From the NCBI RefSeq assembly GCF_004010195.1, contig NC_057752.1, positions 15,141,585 to 15,205,584 on the forward strand: a stretch of 64,000 nucleotides of DNA. The letters run 5' to 3'. This document shows, piece by piece, positions 1,333-53,649 of this stretch. The stretch is from Chiloscyllium plagiosum. Lineage: Eukaryota. A program made the position numbers and the translations under genes. How positions within the stretch are numbered: the first letter of the stretch is position 1; each line of letters begins with the position of its first letter. Below the pieces are notes generated by a model. That model was not told where the DNA came from. It saw nothing but the letters and a program-made list of their open reading frames with translations, and did no database searches.

Positions 1333-3825
1333 TCCAAATCTAAAAAAAAATGTAAAGAGTGTCTTCGTACATCGGCCAGATTGTCCACAGATTTGTGGAC
1401 ACAAAAAAAGAATTATTATGGATTCTTCAAATTCTGGTCTTCAGATAAAGTCAATTTTCACACAAGCTATTGGGATTTCCTCCTGGATCCGTAAAGGTTG
1501 GTTAAATCTCTTTTCCTGGAGACAGTGGTGTAGATTAAGACTTTTCCTTTAAGCTGCATTAAAGAGAGTTTCAGACGGGGCAGAAATTGTTGCCCCTGTG
1601 GCGGTTTCTCTCTGGTTGTGTTTAAGATTTTTTTTTGCACACACAAACTGTATGATGTGACCACTTTCTATCTGAAAGTGCTGGAGTGTCTGAAACTGTC
1701 TCCATCCAACCAGTCTGCTCTTTAGAAATGTAACATTGATACTGCCGTATACAATGAGATTTGCTTTGAACATTAGTATTTTCAAAGGTTCAAGATTCAT
1801 ATAAGATGTCCAGTCAATTATTATAAATTAATATTTTCGATGACACATCATCATAACACTGTTTATTTGAATAAAGTGTTTGGATGAAAAATGGAATGCA
1901 AAATTATTTGGAATGCAAAGCGAGTATCAGCAAACATTGTCAGAAAGCTGTTAGATCGGCATAAACTCACTGGTTTCCTAATGTCTTGGGGAAGGAAACA
2001 TGCTGTTCTTACCCAGATTCGGCATCAAAATGGTTGTATGTTAACCGTATTCTGAACTGACCGAATAATTGATTGCATTATTTCAAACCAGTCCCAAAAG
2101 AGGTGAAGATTAAAAAAAAAGACCACATGCCTTGAAGCATTGAATTAGAATGTGGTAAAGTCACACCCACCTGAGTTGACCCTGCAGGTCCTCTCCACTG
2201 ATATGAGGACAAATGCTAAAGTTGACTTAGTTATCCTACAGCCTAGTGGAGCAGCAGCCTGAAATGATCATACTCTTAAAAGTATACCCTGTAGCCAAAG
2301 TTCCAGACTTCTCCATCACTGTCGATTAATACGTCTTTCTCCACACAGTAGGTAGCCCAAATTTTAATCACTGCGCCACTGGCAGCTGTGCAATAAGCTG
2401 TCTAGAAATTAAGCCCTGGAAATCGTTTTCTAAACTCCTCCACCACTCTTTCTTCATTTAAGACTCCTTGCAACCATTTACTTTGACCAAACAGGGTTTT
2501 TGCAGGTGTCTATTTACCACCCTCAGTCTACTCTCAATCTTAAACAAAGTGATGGAGTCATTGACAGTGTCAACAAGTGGTACTTGCTCACTGACACTCA
2601 GTTTGGGTTCCACCAGGGTTACTCAACTCATGACTTCATTACAGCTTTGGTTCAAACGTAAACAAAAGAGCTGAGTTCCAGAGTTGAGGTGCGATTGAGT
2701 GTGGCACCAAGGAGCCTTAGCAAAGCTGGAGTCAATGGGAATCAGAGGAAACATTTTCCATTGGTTGGAGTCATACCTGACACATAGAAAGATGGCTGCA
2801 GTTGTTGGAGTCCAAACATTTCAGCTCCAAGACATCAATGCAGGAGAATCTCAGGGCAGTGTCCTCAGCAATTTTCCCACTAAGGAGTGCAACAGCCAAA
2901 GTATTCCACGCAAGCTATGTTCTGTGAGAAATTATGCATATTAGCGGCTGCGCAAAGAAATGCAAAACGGCCAAGCGCAACTACATTTTCATTGATCCTT
3001 TGCTGTTTCATCAATTAGTTTTTCTTCATTTAGGTTATAATTGTTTCTGTTACTGAGCCACTGCCTCCATCTCTCTCCATGGCAATTGTTATTCAGCCTT
3101 AGAAAATGTTAAGCATCCAAGGCTTGAGTTCTTCTCCAGTTATTGGCCTTACCTTTAATTGCCTTGGCCCTAGATATTGGAATCTCCGTTCCTTATCCCC
3201 TCCCTGCAAAGGGATTCAGAGTTAAATAGAAAGTTGAAAAGCAGAACCTCTTGGATTGCAAACTTGGGATTACTTCCTGTGCCACTTGCTAATGAGGCTG
3301 AGAACCTCAGGAGTGAAGGGCTTATGACAAAACGTTGGCCGTCCTGCTCCTCGGATGCCGCCTGACCTGCTTTGCTTTCTCAGCACCACACTTTTCGACT
3401 CTGACTCTCCAGCATCTGCAGTCCTCACTTTCTTCTGGTTGTTGTGAAGAGGCAGCAGAGGGATATACAGTGGTTGGGTGAGTGGACATAAACATGACTA
3501 ATGGAATACGATGCAACAAAGTGTGAAAGAAAAATGAAAAAGCAGAAGATTATTTTAAATGCTGAGAGTTGGGGAAATGTTTGCAATCTGAAGGAATTGA
3601 ATATCCTTATACAGGAATCATAAAGTTAATGTCCAGGTAAGGTAAGGAGATAGCAAGGCAAATGGTATATTAACTTTATTTAAAGTAGAGATTACTGTTC
3701 AGAAATCTATCATGTTATGATCATCACTTCGTGATGATCATCTGGGATGCTATTGAACTAATGGAGTTAAAGACCAATAAATCCCCTGGACCTGATGAGA
3801 TGCATCCCAGGATATTAGAGTCATA

Positions 3826-5000: not shown

Positions 5001-5327
5001 TTTTTTAAAATTCATTCAAAGGATGTAGGCATCACTGGCCGGGCCAGCTTTCATTGATCATCCCTAATTGCCCAGAGGGCAGATCAGTATCAACCACTTT
5101 ACTGTGGGTCTGGAGTCACATGGAGGAAAGACAAGATAAGGATGGCAGTTTCCTTCCTGAAAGGACATTAGTGAACCAGATGGGTTTTTCCAGCAGTCAA
5201 CGATGGATTCATAGTCATCATTAGAGTCCTAATTTCAGATATTTAGCGACTTCAAACTCCACCGTCTTGCATGGCAGGATTCAAACCCAGATCCCGAGAA
5301 CATTGCCATGGTCTCTAGATTAATAGA

Positions 5328-5530
5328 TGGAAATGTGTTGCTGGAAAAGCGCAGCAGGTCAGGCAGCATCTAGGGAACAGGAGAATCGACGTTTCGGGCA
5401 TTAGCCCTTCTTCAGGAATGAGAAAAGTTGGTCCAGCAGGCTAAGATAAAAGATAGCGAGGAGGGACTTGGGGGAGGGGCGTCGGAAATGTGATAGGTGG
5501 AAAGAGGTCAAGGTGAGGGTGATAGGTCGC
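5328..5530 (-). mobile_element. Penelope-like element terminal fragment with hammerhead core (5388-5415)
   Basis: Reverse complement reads ctgaaga-a-gggc-taat-gccc-gaaacgtc; homologous to 7850-8045. Confidence 0.8.
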
Positions 5531-24313: not shown

Positions 24314-25524
24314 CGTAGGACAATGGTTTTGAATAAAATCTGTCTTCCCCAACTCCAAAATACTTTTCCATGGGTTATCTTTTTCCTTTTCCATAACCAC
24401 CTTAAAATGTCCACTGATGCGCTCATCATCACTACAATGCTTCCTCACGGTCACCTCAACCACTTGTCTGACTTCATTCCCCAGAATTCGGTCTGGTACT
24501 GCACCGTCCCTTATAGGATCATCTACATGTTGATATAAAAAGCTCTCCTGAATACATTTCAAGAAATCTGCCCTCTCTGAACCCTTTATATTACAGTTAT
24601 CCAAAGTAATGTTGGGGAAGTTGAAATTGCCTAACATTATTGCCATTCCTGATGAAGGGCTTCTGCCTGAAACATGAATCTCCTGCTCCTCAGATGCTGC
24701 CTGCCCTGCTGTGTTTTTCCAGCGCCACACATTTTGACTCTGACCTCCAGCATCTGCAGTCCTCACTTTCTCTCAGTTAATATAATTATCCTGTTATTGT
24801 TTTTGCATACCTCAGTGAATTTTTGTCATATCCGCTCCTTTATTGCCCTCTGACTGTTTGGGGGCCTATAATGTATTCCAAACAGTGTGACTGCCCCCTT
24901 TTTATTCCTAAGTGCTCCCCACAAAGCCTCATTTAATGGCTCTTTCAAGATATCATCCTGCCTTTCTGCAGGAACTAACCTCTTATTAAATAATGCAACG
25001 CCACTTCTTTTGTTATACCCTCCACATTTCTATGACGACAACAACATCACATTCCACTGGCAGTCCATGCCCTTAACTCATCGTTTTATCTATAATACTT
25101 CTAGCATTAAAGTAGAGGCCATTCAGCCTCGCCTTACTCCATGATATCTCAACATGGATGAACCCTGTCTGCCTTGGTTCCTACAGTATACAATATCCTT
25201 TTGTTGTCACATGTATTCCATTGTACAAGTACAGTGATAAGCTTTTACAATAGCTGCCTTTTCATAGCGGCATCTTAGGTATAAGTACCTAGGTACGGCT
25301 CGTGGATATAGCAGAGGAATAAAAGTAGTTGCATTACTTAGAGTTGAAAAATAAGTAAAACTAGGCTGAAAAAATAGAAAAACATTAAAGGGTTGACATT
25401 ACAATAAGGTAGGAAATTTTAAATAGATATTACAGTGTAGCACCTCAGCACAGGGCCTCCACACATGGTCTGACCACCTGCACCAGACCACAGTCCAACA
25501 GCTGTCTCCACTCTGCTCCAACCT

Positions 25525-26416
25525 TCAATTGTTGCAAAAAGACTGGAAAGTTTGAGTGCTCTTACACATGGTGACAGATGAGCCACTGAAACTAGAGATT
25601 TGAGTTGGTCCAGTTTTGATAACAGGTATGGAAGGAGTGCCTTGGAAGTAGTCCTGAAATCTATTGCAAATCTGGATAGTCCACGGGTGTCATCACCGAA
25701 AGACTATGTTGAAGACTTTTTCAAAGATGTTTGACAGGGATTAATTGGTGTAGGTTTGATAAATATGGAAGACCATTCAGGCCTTCTCACATTGGATAAA
25801 GACTACAACAGCTTTGGCAAATTCTTGAATTGAATCCTTGGTATGGAGGTACACCAACAGAATGCTCTCTTCCAGTATTTTTCAGACAATTTAAATGCTC
25901 TCATTCAGAATGCAAAGAAGAATGGAAGATATGGTCTGGGAATTTTGGATCTGGGTTCCAGGAACAAAAGGGTGAAGAAATGAGAAGCAAAGAAATTCTG
26001 AACTCCAGGGTATTCTGTATCAGGAGATGTTGAAATTTATGCTAGAAGTGTCGAAAGAGGCATGTTCTGGGAAGAAGCTACAAAGATTTGGGCAGAGCAA
26101 ACTGGAATAGATGATGGCTTCCATTTGTCAGTGCAGATAAGGAATAAGACAGCAATTCTGGTTAAGGAAGTTGACAGCAAGAAGAGACTGTTCATGATGT
26201 ACCAACCAAGCAACTCAAATTAGAGACTTACATTAAACTAAAAAAGAAATATAAAAAGGTAACATCTGCAGAAGCAGAGTCACATTGGTGGAACAGTACA
26301 AGTCATCTACAGAAACTTGTACTCATGCATATTGACGTGGAAACTGCAAAAAAGTAAGCCTTCGAATGGTTTGTGAAGTCGCGCTGAGGTGCTGCACTGA
26401 CCATGTCCTCTGTGGG
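25525..26416 (+). pseudogene. SBNO1: Processed pseudogene fragment of strawberry notch homolog 1 (helicase-C / C-terminal region)
   Basis: Manual translation: [52 protein letters not shown]...[55 protein letters not shown]...[19 protein letters not shown]...KQLKLETY...TCTHAY*RGNCKK...HVLCG. Colinear with vertebrate SBNO1, intronless, at least six stops plus frameshifts. Confidence 0.92.
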
Positions 26417-27901
26417 TGACCAAACAGGTGTATGAGGATAAAGCGGTTAATGTGATGTGTATGGATTTCAGTAAGGTATTTGATAACGTTCCCCACAGTA
26501 TGCTATTGCACAAAATACAGAAGCAATGGATTGAGGGTGATTTAGTGGTTTGGATCAGAAATTGGCTAGCTGAAAGAAGACAGGTTGATGGGAAATATTA
26601 ATCCTGGAGTACAGTTATTCATCGTGTACCGCACAGGGTCTGTTTTGGGTCCACTGCTGTTTGTCATTTTTATAAATGATCTGGATGAGAGCATGGATGG
26701 ATGGGTTAGTAAATTTGCGCATGACACTAAGGTCAGTGGAATTGTGGAATAGTGCAAAAGGATGTTGTAGGTTCCAGAGGGACATAGATAAGCTGCAGAG
26801 CTGGGATGAGAGGTGGCAAATGGAGTTTAATGTGGAAAAATGTGAGGTGATTCACTTTGGATGGAGCAACAGGAATGAAGAGTACTGGGCTAATGGTAAG
26901 ATTCTTGGTAGTGTAGATGAGCAGAAAGATCTCGGTGTCCATGTGCATAGATCCCTGAAAATTGCCACCCAGGTTGCTGGGGTTATTAAGAAGGCATACA
27001 GTGTGTGAGCCTTTATTGGTAGAGGGATTGAGTTTTGGAGCCATGTGGTCATGCTGCAGCTGCACAAAACTCTGGTGTAGCTGCACTTGGACTATTGTGT
27101 ACAGTTGTGGTCACCACATTATAGGAATGATGTGGAGGCATTGGAAAGGGTTCAGAGGAGATTTACTGGAATGTTGCCTGGTATGGAGGGTAGGTCTTGA
27201 TTAGATTACTTACAATGTGGAAACAGGCCTTTTGGCCCAAGTCCACACCGACCCTCTGAAGAGCAATCCACCCAGACCCATTCCCCTACATTTACCCCTT
27301 CACCTTACACTACGGGCAATTTAGCATGGCCAATTCACCTAACCTGCACATCTTTGGACTGTGGGAGGAAACCGGAGCACCCGGAGGAAACCCACGCAGA
27401 CACGGGGAGAATGTGCAAACTCCACGCATACAGTTGCCCGAGGTGGGAATTGAACCTGGGTCTCTGGCGCTGTGAGGCAGCAGTGCTAACCACTGTGCCA
27501 AAAAAGTGAGAGACTTGAGGCTGTTTTTGTTAGAGAGAAGAAGGTTGAGAGCTGACTTAATTGAGACATGTAAGATAATTAGAGGGTTAGATAGGGTGGA
27601 TAGGGAGAGCCTTTTTCCTTGGATGGCAATGGCTAGCATGAGGAGGCATAGCTTTAAATCGAGGGGTGATACATATAGGACAGATGTCAGAGGTAGTTTC
27701 TTTGCTCAGAGTAGTAGTGGAATGCACTATCTGCAACAGTTGTAGACTCGCCAACATTACGGGCATTTAAATGGTCACTGGATAAACATATGGATGAGAA
27801 TCGAATAGTGTAGGTTAGATGGGCTTCAGATTGGTTCCACAGGTGGGTGTGACATTGAGGGCCGAAGGGCCTGTACTGTGCTGTAATGTTCTATGTTCTA
27901 T
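26414..27901 (+). mobile_element. 5'-truncated CR1 LINE fused to the SBNO1 retrocopy; interrupted by an HE1 SINE
   Basis: Starts VTKQVYEDKAVNVMCMDFSKVFDNVPH immediately after the SBNO1 sequence; ends gttctatgttctat. Confidence 0.9.
27199..27500 (-). mobile_element. HE1-type V-SINE nested in CR1
   Basis: gattagattac tail and tRNA head on the minus strand. Confidence 0.9.
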
Positions 27902-29288
27902 TTTCCAAGTTCTAACCCCCTTTCTGCTTCAGACCGGCACTCAGCTGCTCCAAGGTAACTGGCTGGATTAACAGAGAATTCCTGAAGAAGGGCTTATGCC
28001 CGAAACGTCGATTCTCCTGTTCCCTGGATGCTGACTGACCTGCTGCACTGTTCCAGCAACACATTTTCAGCAAAGAACATTTACAGTCCAGGAACAGGCC
28101 CTTCGATCCTCCAAGTCTGAGCCGATCCAAATCTACTCTCTAAACCTATCGCCTAATTCCTAAGCATTTGTATCCTTCTGCTCCTCACCTACTCCCTGTT
28201 GCCTCTACATCTTTCCATAATCTGTATACCTATTTGTTCTTCTACCTCACACTCACTGTTGGGAGGCCTGTAATACAGCCCCAACAATGTAACTGCACCC
28301 TTCTTATTTCTCAGCTCCACCCATAATGCCTCACTACCCAAGCCCTCCATAGTGTCCTCCTTTAGCACAGCCGTGATATTACCCCTGACCAGCAATACAA
28401 CTCCTCCCCCCCCTTTTTACTTCCCTCCTGTCCTGTGTGAAGCATCTATATCCTGGAACATTCAGTTACCAATCATGCCCTTCCTTCAACCAAGTCTCTG
28501 TGATTTGTAAGGGATTGCCTCCATCGTGCTGGTCTCCGTCCGGCACTTGCTGCCTGCATGATACTCCGGGGCTGCTTCACCGTGTGCTGCTGCTCAGCTG
28601 CCTTTATTATATGATGCGGTGTTCCTATTTTACTAATGCATTGTGTCCCCTCCCCTTGCTGAACTTCTTTAAACTCCTCCCAACGCCTGTAGCAAACCCT
28701 CCCACAACTATCCCATCTGTAGAGCTCCCACCTTCCCCAGAAATGGTTTCAGTGATCCAGGAATATAAAGCCCTCCCACATTAGCTCTTGACCCAGGCAT
28801 TCATCTACTGTATTCTCCTGTTTCTGTACTCACTAACCCATGGCACTGGGAGTAATCCAGAGATTACAACCTTTCAGTACCTAATTTTAGTCTGCTCCCA
28901 GTTCCCTGAATTCTTGACCTCATCCCTCATTCTACCTATATCATTGATACCAACATGTACCATGATGTCGTCATCTTCAGCCTGCCCTGCAGCTATTCAG
29001 TGACATCCCTGGCCCTTGCACCAGTGAGGCAATACACCATCCTGGAGTGCAGTCTGCGGCCGCTGAAATCCTTGTCTGTTCTCCGAACTAAGGAATCCCC
29101 TATCACGATCACTCCAGCTTTCTTCTTCTTCCCCTCCTGTACAGTAAGGTCACTTGTGGTGTCAGAAGTTTAGCTCTGTCTGCACTCCCTTGAGGAACTA
29201 GCGCTGTCATCAGCTTCTGGAAAGGAAAATTAATTTGAGAGTGGGACCCCAGGGGTCTCCTGCTATACCTGCCTGTTTCTCTTTGACT

Positions 29289-43794: not shown

Positions 43795-44700
43795 TGAGCC
43801 ATTATCTGTGTGGAGTTTACACATTCTCCCCATGTCTGCATGGGATTCCTTCAGGTGCTCCGGTTTCCTCCTACAGCTCAAGGGTGTGCAGGTTAGGGTG
43901 GATTGGCCATGCTAAATTGCCCCATAGTGCCCAGGAATGTGCAGGTTAGGGTGGATTGGCCGTGCTAATTTATCCCATAGTGTCCAGGGATGTGCAGGTT
44001 AGGGTGGATTGGCCATGCTAAATTGTCCCATAGTGTCCAGGTATGTGCAGGTTAGGATGGATTGGCCATGCTAAATTGTCCCGTAGTGTCCAGGGATGTG
44101 CATGTTATGGTGGATTGGCCATGCTAAATTGTCCCATAGTGTCCAGGGATGTGCAGGTTAGGGTGGATTGGCCATGCTAAACTGTCCTAGTATCCAGGGA
44201 TGTGCAGGTTATGGTGGATTGGCCATGCTAAACTGTCCCGTCGTGTCCAGGGATGTGCAGGTTAGGGTGGATTGGCCGTGCTAAATTGTTCCATAGTGTC
44301 CAAGGATATGCAGGTCAGGGTGGATTGGCCATGCTAAACTGTCCCGTAGTGTCCAGGGATGTGTAGGTTAGGGTGGATTGGCCATGCTAAATTGTCCCGT
44401 AGTACCCAGGGATGTGCAGGTTAAGGTGGATTGACCGTGCTAAATTGTCCCATAGTGCCCAGGGATGTGTAGGTTAGGGTGGATTGGTCATGCTAAATTG
44501 ACCCATAGTGTCCAGGGATGTGCAGGTTAGGGTGGATTGGCCGTGCTAAATTGTCCCATAGTACCGAGGGATGTGCAGGTTAGGGTGGATTGGCCGTGAG
44601 AAATATTGAGATACAGGGATAAAGTGGGAGGGTGGGGCTGTGTGGGATGCTCTTTGGAGAGTCAATGCCAACGCGACAGTCACTGTAGGGATCCTCTGAT
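43795..44700 (+). repeat. HE1-type SINE with a 53-bp internal unit amplified to about 14 tandem copies (~43880-44598)
   Basis: Unit cagggatgtgcaggttagggtggattggccatgctaaattgtcccatagtgtc, flanked by SINE body and tail. Confidence 0.9.
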
Positions 44701-51495: not shown

Positions 51496-52155
51496 CCATC
51501 ATGATATAGTGTTACCAATATACAGGTTTGCAGTACAAAACAGATCATGGCCTATAGACTGGAAACAAACAGAGCTGAGATATCACCAGAACATCTGCTG
51601 GACAGAACCAGATGGATAGGCAGATTACAGTTGTTTTTAAATCTGTGGTACGGTATCCCCATTTAGGCTCCAAACTTAAATTCAAGGATGCCAACTGTTT
51701 TATCTGAGTTGCAATGTTAAACAAAATCAAACCACTTCTCTGCTTTTTCCAGAGTGTTGCCCTCATGAGACATCCTTCAGCATCTCAGCCAAGTGACAAG
51801 CAGGAGTCACTGCACAGTGGTCAGGAGCAGCACCCCAAGGCTAATTTTGCACCAATACCAAATCTAAGCCTGTTTCAGATGAGAGCAGCTCAGTCCCCAA
51901 ACAGAGCCTGGGATCTTCCTCTGTCCCCTCTGTGTAGGGTAGCTGGTGATGCACACTAGTGATACTTTGCCCTATACATGCCCCAGCTGTATGCCCATTG
52001 CTCATGATTCAGGTGGTTTGTGAGCGGCACAAAGGTAGGGTTTGGATTGGTTTTACGGCAGACAGCATGTCAATAGGGCTCAGCCCTCACCCTAACAGGA
52101 AGCTGGGCATTGGTCATGGTCTGGTTGTCCACCAGAATCCATGAGGATACTTTAC

Positions 52156-52374
52156 CTGATAATGTAGACAGATGTGCATCACGTGTTCATAAATCTCTCC
52201 GGTAATGTGCCCCTTGGGCTTTGCTGGAACCAGCACATACTGAATGCCAAGCAATGGCACCAGAATCAATGTGGCTCGTACCACCTTCATGTAGGCTTTC
52301 GACTGCGCCTGGTGGGTAACCCTCAGCTTTGTGATAAGAACTCGAACAATGTTGAGTAGAAAAAACAGGTTGAC
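52156..52374 (-). CDS. calcrl2: Calcitonin receptor-like GPCR, TM5-TM7 exon (219 bp; [73 protein letters not shown])
   Basis: Acceptor ccctgtctcccag|, donor CAG|gtaaag. Open frame with strong similarity to CALCRL/CALCR, including the PLLG motif of TM6. Confidence 0.95.
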
Positions 52375-53649
52375 CTGGGAGACAGGGCAAACAGAGAGTT
52401 ATGAGAGATAAACAATGGCATCCAAATCAATCAATCCTCAGTCCAGCCCTCAGTGGTTCACAGACACAGGGCTGCTTGAAGGGCTTTGCCTGAAACGCTG
52501 ACTCTCCTGCTCCTCAGATGCTGCCTGACCTGTTGTGCTTTGCCAGTGCCACCCTCTTGAGTTCCCAGTCACAGCTCAGTCCCGGCCCTTCCAAGCACTC
52601 ACATGCATGGAACGATTTCATGGCGACCAACTGGAACTTTACTGAGGGTAAATCAGCACTGATTGACAATCTGACTGCGAAACGATACTGGCTCCTTATA
52701 CAGCTCCTAGGAGTTGGGAGCCTGACAGTTTTCACGCTCCCCATCCCAAGGAGACTGAAGTCAGTGGGAGAACTGGGAAATTCCTGATGGCTGTAGTTGG
52801 TGAGCTGAGCAAGTGTACTCTCGGCTCAGAGAATCATAGAATCATTCAATACAGAAGAAGTCTTTCGGCCCATTGAGTCTGTACTGCCAAAAAATACACT
52901 ACTACCTACACTGGTTCCATTTTCATGTACTAGGCCCATAGCCTTGAATGTTATGACATTTCAAGGGCTCATCCAAGATTAGGAGGTTTCTCACCTCAAC
53001 TACCATCCCAGGCAGTGCATTCCAGTCCCCCATCACCCTTAGTGAAAAAACATTTTGTTAAATCCCGTCTACAACTCCTGCCTTTCACTTTAAAATTATG
53101 CCCCTTGTTATCGACCCTTCGAGTAAGGGGCATAGCTGCTTTCTATTCACCCTGTCCATGTCCCTCATAACCTTATACACCTCTATCAGGTCCCCCCCTT
53201 AACCTTCACTGCTCCATGGAAAATAACCCGAGCCTATCCAGCCTCTCTTCTCAGATGCAATGCTCCATCCTTGCTGTGTCCTTCCAGCCTACTGCTTGTC
53301 TACCTTGGAATCAGGCACCTCTAGTTTTTGTTTGTCTCCCTCGTCTCCCACAGCAGCTTGAGATACAACCCTTCAAAATCTCCAATACCTCCTTGCTTCA
53401 TATATCAATCTGCTCAAGAACCTCACAGTCCATTTTTTGAATTCATCTCTCCTCAGTGAAGTCAGATGTCAAGTACTTGTTTAACACTCTCCCAGTGTCC
53501 TCTGGCTTCACACACAGATTGCTGCTTTGTTCCCTCCTTTTTCTGTGGTTATTCTCTTCCCCTTGATATACTTGTGCAGATTTTCCCAAATCTTGCCCTC
53601 ATCTTAAATTGGTTCATGCTGAGTTTAAAAAATGGAATAAGGTACATAC

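Follow-up and report, generated by a model that had tools for sequence, protein, structure and literature searches.

The window is a 64,000-nucleotide stretch of Chiloscyllium plagiosum DNA (NC_057752.1, positions 15,141,585 to 15,205,584). Translation of its three plus-strand frames between 25400 and 28000 gives SBNO1-like sequence broken by stops, followed by reverse transcriptase (RT)-like sequence. The two parts are fused to each other and are enclosed by an older interspersed repeat, and a SINE is nested in the RT-containing part (Table 1).

Table 1. Coordinates of the SBNO1-CR1 block, its target site and its nested SINE in the window
Feature	Position	Strand	Remarks
Older interspersed host repeat, left part	25188-25522		Ends at position 300-301 of the majority of copies
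Left copy of the likely target-site duplication, TCCAAC	25517-25522	+	Overlap of the host pieces, common non-majority C
Processed SBNO1 fragment	25523-26415	+	Joined copy of ten exons, cut within an exon at either end; the first 219 codons contain five stops; 6-, 10- and 1-nt deletions
SBNO1/CR1 junction	26415-26416	+	One shared G, no poly(A), no spacer
5'-truncated CR1-type LINE, RT region	26415-27198	+	ORF2 from about residue 572
Younger tRNA-headed SINE (HE1-like, name inferred)	27199-27500	-	Inserted reversed within CR1; best other copies about 90% alike
CR1 ORF2 C terminus, 3' UTR, degenerate 7-nt tail	27507-27914	+	Tail at 27889-27914; tail/target boundary between 27902 and 27915
Host repeat resumes	27911-27967		In register, 44/57 matches, no gaps; begins with the right duplication copy TCTAAC (27911-27916)
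Next piece of the same host repeat	28512-28581		Displaced by later insertions; E = 6e-10

The SBNO1 and CR1 parts of the block

Pfam analysis of the SBNO1 fragment identifies Helicase_C_4 (E = 7e-33) and SBNO domains. Its best named relatives are the SBNO1 proteins of sharks and rays (83% for whale shark), and it spans residues ~973-1275 of a 1359-residue shark SBNO1. The parent gene lies on the minus strand of G000:C6:121178739-121192185 in the same genome and comprises ten exons and nine GT..AG introns, which range from 78 to 4733 nt. The window copy lacks every one of these introns, and the spliced parent forms a 910-nt open frame that aligns end to end with the fragment. Both an intronless retrocopy and a multi-exon parent had been expected in the original prediction and are borne out; the predicted start at 25525 is corrected to 25523, with the end at 26415. 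Both edges fall within exons. The parental exon extends 113 nt beyond the 3' edge, and the copy lacks the last ~84 codons and the 3' UTR.

The frame is disrupted by stops as predicted, five of them in the first 219 codons, and the 6.7% change at zero-fold sites versus 10.3% at four-fold sites corresponds to near-neutral decay. The introns are precisely gone and the frame is disabled, which identifies the SBNO1 copy as a processed pseudogene. It is dead, with no function visible in its product. A DNA search of the genome with the SBNO1 piece returned at least 12 matches, which consist of the window, the ten C6 exons (minus strand) and an older intronless copy on C1. No second SBNO1-CR1 fusion was found among at least 12 DNA and at least 27 protein matches listed, and an amplified SBNO1-CR1 family was rejected on this basis. 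The missing SBNO1 remainder was found neither in the window nor elsewhere on its contig among the 27 matches listed, and SBNO1 sequence does not resume after CR1 in the window, as had been anticipated. The C1 copy (L017, G000:C1:94612001-94622000, about 5013-5461) is 77-90% identical per exon and passes at its 3' side into a long minisatellite of 21-nt units and a gap.

The LINE part corresponds to residues 572-942, the C terminus, of a 942-residue endonuclease-RT protein (74% identity) and is 42% identical to a stork RT protein with common C-terminal motifs. We take bird LINEs and these C-terminal motifs to signify CR1. The match to the C terminus of an endonuclease-RT protein and the bird RT relative with the same motifs make assignment to the CR1 clade likely. 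The CR1-clade features recognised are the relation to an ORF2 with AP endonuclease and RT, a CR1-type C terminus, a short tandem-repeat tail and no poly(A). The tail is of the (TTCTATG) type, and the 7-nt tail is also found in family copies. The prediction that CR1 continues to its own 3' tail near ~27900 stands, with the amendment that the reversed SINE interrupts the element. The SINE and CR1 have a common motif before the tail. An HE1/HER1 pair of shark SINE and LINE is tabulated in PMC3747384. The tail unit at 27903-27909 reads TTCCAAG, close to the CTCCAAG of the target, possibly a trace of slipped or repeated priming at the 3' junction. Two database records are 69-70% identical to the CR1 ORF2 piece: P0125 ("adenylate kinase 2", zebra shark) and P0121 (Klebsiella reverse transcriptase). 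The first probably represents a gene model that has exonised a CR1, and the second a contaminant entry.

The letters of the parent, the window and the CR1 family were compared at the break. Up to the break, parent and window both read ...CTCTGTGG|, after which the parent goes on with TTCAG and the window with GTGACC; the CR1 family has ...GAGAAG|GTGACC at this point, which leaves one G common to both parts. The predicted direct fusion to the RT region of a same-orientation CR1 is therefore found as described, without poly(A) or spacer. All 29 family copies fetched extend further 5' of the CR1 break at 26415, so this position is a truncation point of the window copy only. The SBNO1 frame reaches a TGA at 26417-26419 and is out of frame with CR1 ORF2. 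Because this stop lies at the junction, no fusion protein was ever encoded, and an in-frame SBNO1-RT fusion was rejected.

The block had also been placed in an intron of SPRYD3. This host gene was not confirmed, with 0 SPRY matches in the 123 longer, repeat-free ORFs tested out of 249 non-repeat ORFs. Elsewhere in the window, an ORF at 52117-52398 (minus strand) resembles an exon of a 7TM receptor of the secretin family (Pfam 7tm_2, E = 8e-13), and a 53-nt tandem array at 43881-44595 has 13.5 copies with 89% matches and a unit resembling part of the SINE.

Target site, age and presence in a related species

The left part of the host repeat has 40 matches in the genome. A majority sequence was built from 27 copies, two near-duplicates being left out, and the left part differs from it at 35/298 sites (11.7%). 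Measured against this majority, the last position of the left piece is 300, and the right piece covers 57 nt from position 296 onwards without a gap. In 13 of 29 host-repeat copies, BLAST matches the sequence past the break to the window again right behind the CR1 tail. The right piece scores 62 against a mean of 14 (sd 3) for 3000 random window slices; two of these slices also scored 62 and are probably the site itself. The left TCCAAC and right TCTAAC have a common C where ~90% of host-repeat copies carry G. The duplication around the block measures about 6 bp (range 2-7 bp), has one mismatch and partly overlaps the CR1 tail, and it is likely a target-site duplication. Target-site duplications are given as 3-5 bp for CR1/L2 and 13-15 bp for L1 (PMC4245944), and the ~6 bp seen here fits CR1/L2 rather than L1. 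The original description, which gave no target-site duplication, is corrected in that a short duplication surrounds the block as a whole. The inner join of the block holds no host or SBNO1 letters, and the host repeat resumes straight after the CR1 tail. The host repeat thus serves as a paralogous empty site, which argues that the block entered as one unit.

A 17-nt inverted repeat (16/17) pairs 25433-25449 with 26383-26399, between the host repeat and the SBNO1 copy. The ancestral states would pair at 12/17, and each of the four changes brings the arms closer to each other. By a rough estimate, selection among many pairs can produce such a repeat by chance. A 5' inversion was rejected as its source, the left arm being ordinary host repeat.

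The ages of the two parts were compared by sequence decay. Compared with the majority of 20 copies, the CR1 part has changes at 95/1177 sites (8.1%), or 78/1134 non-CpG sites (6.9%, CI 5.5-8.5); these copies are the best matches, and their own divergence spans 6.4-10.0%. The SBNO1 part differs from its parent at 63/889 sites (7.1%), or 34/555 zero-fold non-CpG sites (6.1%, CI 4.3-8.5). The parent SBNO1 protein is identical to that of whale shark at 367/368 residues and is thus nearly unchanged, so the zero-fold changes fell on the copy. Decay is matched between the SBNO1 and CR1 parts as predicted (Fisher p = 0.60 for non-CpG sites and p = 0.45 for all sites), with confidence intervals that permit an age difference of up to one-third. 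The order of ages is consistent, the host repeat (11.7%) being older than the block (7-8%) and the block older than the SINE.

Sequencing runs were searched for the block. Part of the stretch was present in 20 of the 24 runs listed, and these 20 come from two organisms. None of those listed as containing it is an RNA run, which is not evidence on expression in either direction. In three runs of a related species (organism B, two studies), single contigs span the host/SBNO1 junction, and these contigs are ~3% from the window (18/573, 20/651 and 19/640). The SBNO1/CR1 junction is bridged in run X11 of the same species, with 33 nt beyond it, and nearly so in run X10, where 29 nt falls below the 31-nt threshold; no bridging piece was found among the matches listed for run X15. 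Coverage in this one species includes these two junctions, host/SBNO1 and SBNO1/CR1, and neither an intermediate state nor an empty site was seen in it. The presence of the block in organism B makes it older than that species split. The predicted gain of SBNO1 and CR1 as a block is backed by the paralogous empty site, and the one related species carries these two junctions.

Other probable RNA-derived copies in the genome

A small, biased sample was surveyed for further cases. It comprised the HSP90, chaperonin, actin, Slu7, GAPDH, Sds3 and MIR families together with one HSP90 gene and SBNO1; for actin and chaperonin it covered matches other than intact single-exon ones. The survey yielded ten further copies of likely RNA origin, two of which have a CR1 or SINE tail and are the two youngest. 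Six older copies (L098, L166, L168, L170, L199 and L218; 70-91% per exon) have no CR1/SINE tail as judged with a small tail library and no clear poly(A). The remaining two are the C1 copy of SBNO1, which ends in its minisatellite, and L173 (G000:C16:65651500-65657500, 2582-3198), an old HSP90 retrocopy. A 500-N assembly gap separates L173 from a CR1 on the same strand, and it is a candidate for another chimera. The GAPDH search gave 1 match, an exon, the Sds3 search gave 0 matches, and no retrocopy was recognised among 18 MIR matches, L237 being the one inspected. L171, L172 and L080 were excluded from the count as non-retrocopies, because their matches are short or come from repeats, or consist of an exon that carries a splice donor.

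The first tailed copy, L081 (G000:C10:88604557-88608429, about 323-2910), is a very young piece of HSP90B1-type pre-mRNA, 94-100% identical to its source. It is partly spliced, the first introns being gone and later introns retained, and ends inside an intron. There it is fused bluntly to the last ~125 nt of a SINE, and the block is flanked by AATGT, a 5-bp duplication. It is nested in another SINE that itself lies in an older CR1. A SINE piece is absent from the matching point of the HSP90B1-type parent, and L081 is a second chimera of the same layout as the SBNO1-CR1 block. The other tailed copy, L169 (G000:C18:11082500-11087500, 2238-3660), is a 96% identical copy of an unspliced chaperonin segment that begins at an exon start and is located in the 3' UTR of another CR1. 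The CR1-type tail at its end begins with 42 nt that belong to the parent's intron, which would make L169 an RNA-derived copy with its handle in cis. The predicted CR1-driven route to gene-fragment duplication gains one further young case, with the qualification that the present SBNO1 copy is a dead one whose frame does not match that of the CR1 ORF.

Joining of the two RNAs and relation to known chimeras

The SBNO1 piece and CR1 very probably represent one CR1-driven insertion. The order is cellular RNA 5' and LINE 3' on the same strand, directly fused without poly(A), as in LINE chimeric retrocopies, and the single target-site duplication with its paralogous empty site and the equal ages of the parts agree with that class. 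A classical L1-made retrocopy does not describe a copy that ends mid-exon without poly(A) inside a ~6 bp duplication, nor does an LTR-mediated retrocopy describe a block with an older host repeat on its left and a non-LTR element on its right. The joining step is better explained by a template switch than by any other single route, and we consider it probable that the CR1 RT started copying at the tail of its own RNA and subsequently switched to an internal site of SBNO1 mRNA. The CR1 endonuclease would have nicked the host repeat, and the enzyme would have used the CR1 tail for priming. The retained sequence records that about 1.2 kb of CR1 was copied, with a halt in the RT region. The enzyme and nascent cDNA may next have shifted to an intact or cleaved SBNO1 mRNA, landing mid-exon and ~84 codons before the stop. 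The copy shows that ~910 nt of spliced mRNA was copied over nine junctions, and its 5' end presumably attached to the target through one shared base and left a short duplication behind. The SINE entered the CR1 part later, and both parts decayed equally, as their present state shows. Ligation of the RNAs or capture during 5' end-joining would yield the same DNA.

Microhomology at the junction is one base only, which counts against a template switch. The shortness of the duplication, its mismatch and its overlap with the tail weigh against this history too, as do the six of ten surveyed copies that have no CR1 or SINE tail. The last 50-60 nt of the SBNO1 piece have a patchy likeness to the CR1 sequence just upstream of its break. 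This likeness was first spotted by eye, and its tests are post hoc. Against random position pairs, one scheme gives p = 0.011 for 60 nt upstream and four other schemes give p = 0.001-0.13 for 50-60 nt upstream; for the downstream side p = 0.47. Five window choices range over p = 0.011-0.47 and 16 scheme/window pairs over p = 0.001-0.43. Extended homology as a guide for the switch was set aside as post hoc and is kept as weak. The likeness is not clean support for a switch because it lies on the side where a cDNA-guided switch would leave CR1 letters. RNA structure at the junction or tail was not better than in shuffled sequences (tail fold z = 0.75).

The retention of SBNO1 letters across the weakly similar 50-60 nt fits priming of a sense strand on CR1 cDNA better than a cDNA-guided jump. 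Such priming belongs to a route in which free SBNO1 cDNA or an RNA patch was taken up by host end-joining during 5' attachment of the truncated CR1, within the same single insertion. Insertions of the L2/CR1 type often have extra nucleotides at their 5' end, about 40-50% of them in the case of ZfL2-2, but the accounts given in PMC4245944 and PMC2666801 describe these extras as 'several nucleotides'. Capture would also call for a further, simultaneous reverse transcription at the same site, and the order on one strand that both clear cases have agrees with a single continuous cDNA, which makes this route quite unlikely. The blunt junction, with at most one shared base, and the equally blunt young HSP90B1 chimera are what would be expected if a cleaved 5' piece of SBNO1 mRNA had been ligated to a cleaved 3' piece of CR1 RNA, by an RtcB-type reaction, and the product copied by CR1 proteins from the CR1 tail. 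RtcB joining precedes U6/L1 chimeras in the account of PMC6789731. For this reaction the mRNA piece must end in a 2',3'-cyclic phosphate; U6 has such an end by design (PMC6789731), but an mRNA would gain one only after endonuclease cleavage, and no such cut site is evident here. Ligation is an unlikely alternative to the template switch.

CR1 copies are very dense in this genome (3865 candidates for a 284-nt piece) and tail-less, 3'-truncated retrocopies are present in it, both of which would assist a history of two events. An ordinary SBNO1 retrocopy would then have lost its 3' part to a CR1 insertion or to a later deletion, or the SBNO1 piece would have arrived later at the CR1 5' edge. The host repeat is in register right after the CR1 tail with nothing between the parts, both breakpoints would have to fall a few bases from the edge of the first insert, and the parts have decayed equally; two events are therefore improbable. 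The least probable origin, and a very remote one, is a chimeric parental transcript in which cryptic splicing or read-through carried SBNO1 into an intronic same-strand CR1 that was recognised by its tail. The CR1 break follows an AG (…GAGAAG|GTGACC), a GT lies one base ahead of the break in the parent, and L169 offers an unspliced copy whose CR1-type tail starts in its parent's intron. However, the would-be donor GTG|GTTCAG agrees with the consensus only at G|GT, the spliced product would be one G short of the window, and no same-strand CR1 family copy that covers the junction was found 3' of the exon in the 39 kb of C6:121140001-121178739.

The template-switch reading was set beside published chimeras, as the cited texts describe them. 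Stringent LINEs have produced U6-L2 and U6-Mon-1 chimeras in platypus and U6-L2, U6-RTE and U6-AnolisSINE2 chimeras in anole, with duplications of 1-9 bp for U6-L2 (Doucet et al. 2015, PMC4476161); one turkey U6-CR1 case is left unsettled there by an assembly gap. The SBNO1-CR1 block resembles these chimeras in having cellular RNA 5' and a LINE or SINE 3' end, a 5'-truncated cellular part, a short duplication and a proposed template switch. The passenger here is a spliced Pol II mRNA of ~900 nt entered mid-exon, whereas theirs is an snRNA entered at its 3' end. Mammalian and Magnaporthe (MINE) chimeric retrogenes likewise place two transcripts head to tail within one direct-repeat pair, but they involve L1 or MGL and repeats of 10-20 bp (PMC2104539), unlike the CR1-type element, ~6 bp and protein-coding passenger seen here. 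The RtcB-ligated U6/L1 chimeras have the same DNA layout and a blunt junction, and depend on the cyclic-phosphate end of U6; the demonstration concerns U6 and L1, not an mRNA piece or CR1 (Moldovan et al. 2019, PMC6789731). LTR-mediated retrocopies are also partial mRNA copies without poly(A) made by template switching (Tan et al. 2016, PMC5131818). They are LTR-flanked on both sides with a median microsimilarity of 6 bp, in contrast to the 3' non-LTR element and single base found here. In the head gain of PittSINE, too, a CR1 enzyme is proposed to switch from CR1-tailed RNA to cellular RNA (PMC5729268); its passenger was a tRNA and its product became a family, whereas the present copy is single and dead.

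The SBNO1-CR1 block is genuine and well supported as a chimeric retropseudogene of mRNA and CR1 whose landing point is internal. The mRNA passenger on CR1 and the internal landing set it apart from the published U6 and L1/L2/RTE chimeras. A literature search, mostly of papers outside subscription, found no resolved mRNA-CR1 chimera. Because the copy is a dead pseudogene, its value is mechanistic. Reviews describe CR1 as making retrocopies poorly and put the few retrocopies of CR1-dominated genomes down to the need of CR1 for its own 3' end (PMC5470649, PMC3136929), and the locus provides a concrete structure for CR1 carriage of spliced mRNA, a route that reviews treat as closed. The empty site, the matched ages and the second young example stand behind that structure. 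A 2026 preprint counts 14,081 retrocopies in cartilaginous fishes, correlated with CR1 or Tx1 content (10.64898/2026.06.26.734816). A tentative extension, which we regard as possible and rather doubtful, is that shark CR1 and its partner SINEs routinely serve as 3' handles, starting on their own tail and jumping into the middle of an mRNA or pre-mRNA, so that a large share of young retrocopies would be tail-less internal fragments ending in a CR1 or SINE 3' end. If true, such routine use would explain many cartilaginous-fish retrocopies even though CR1 is held to be unable to make them.
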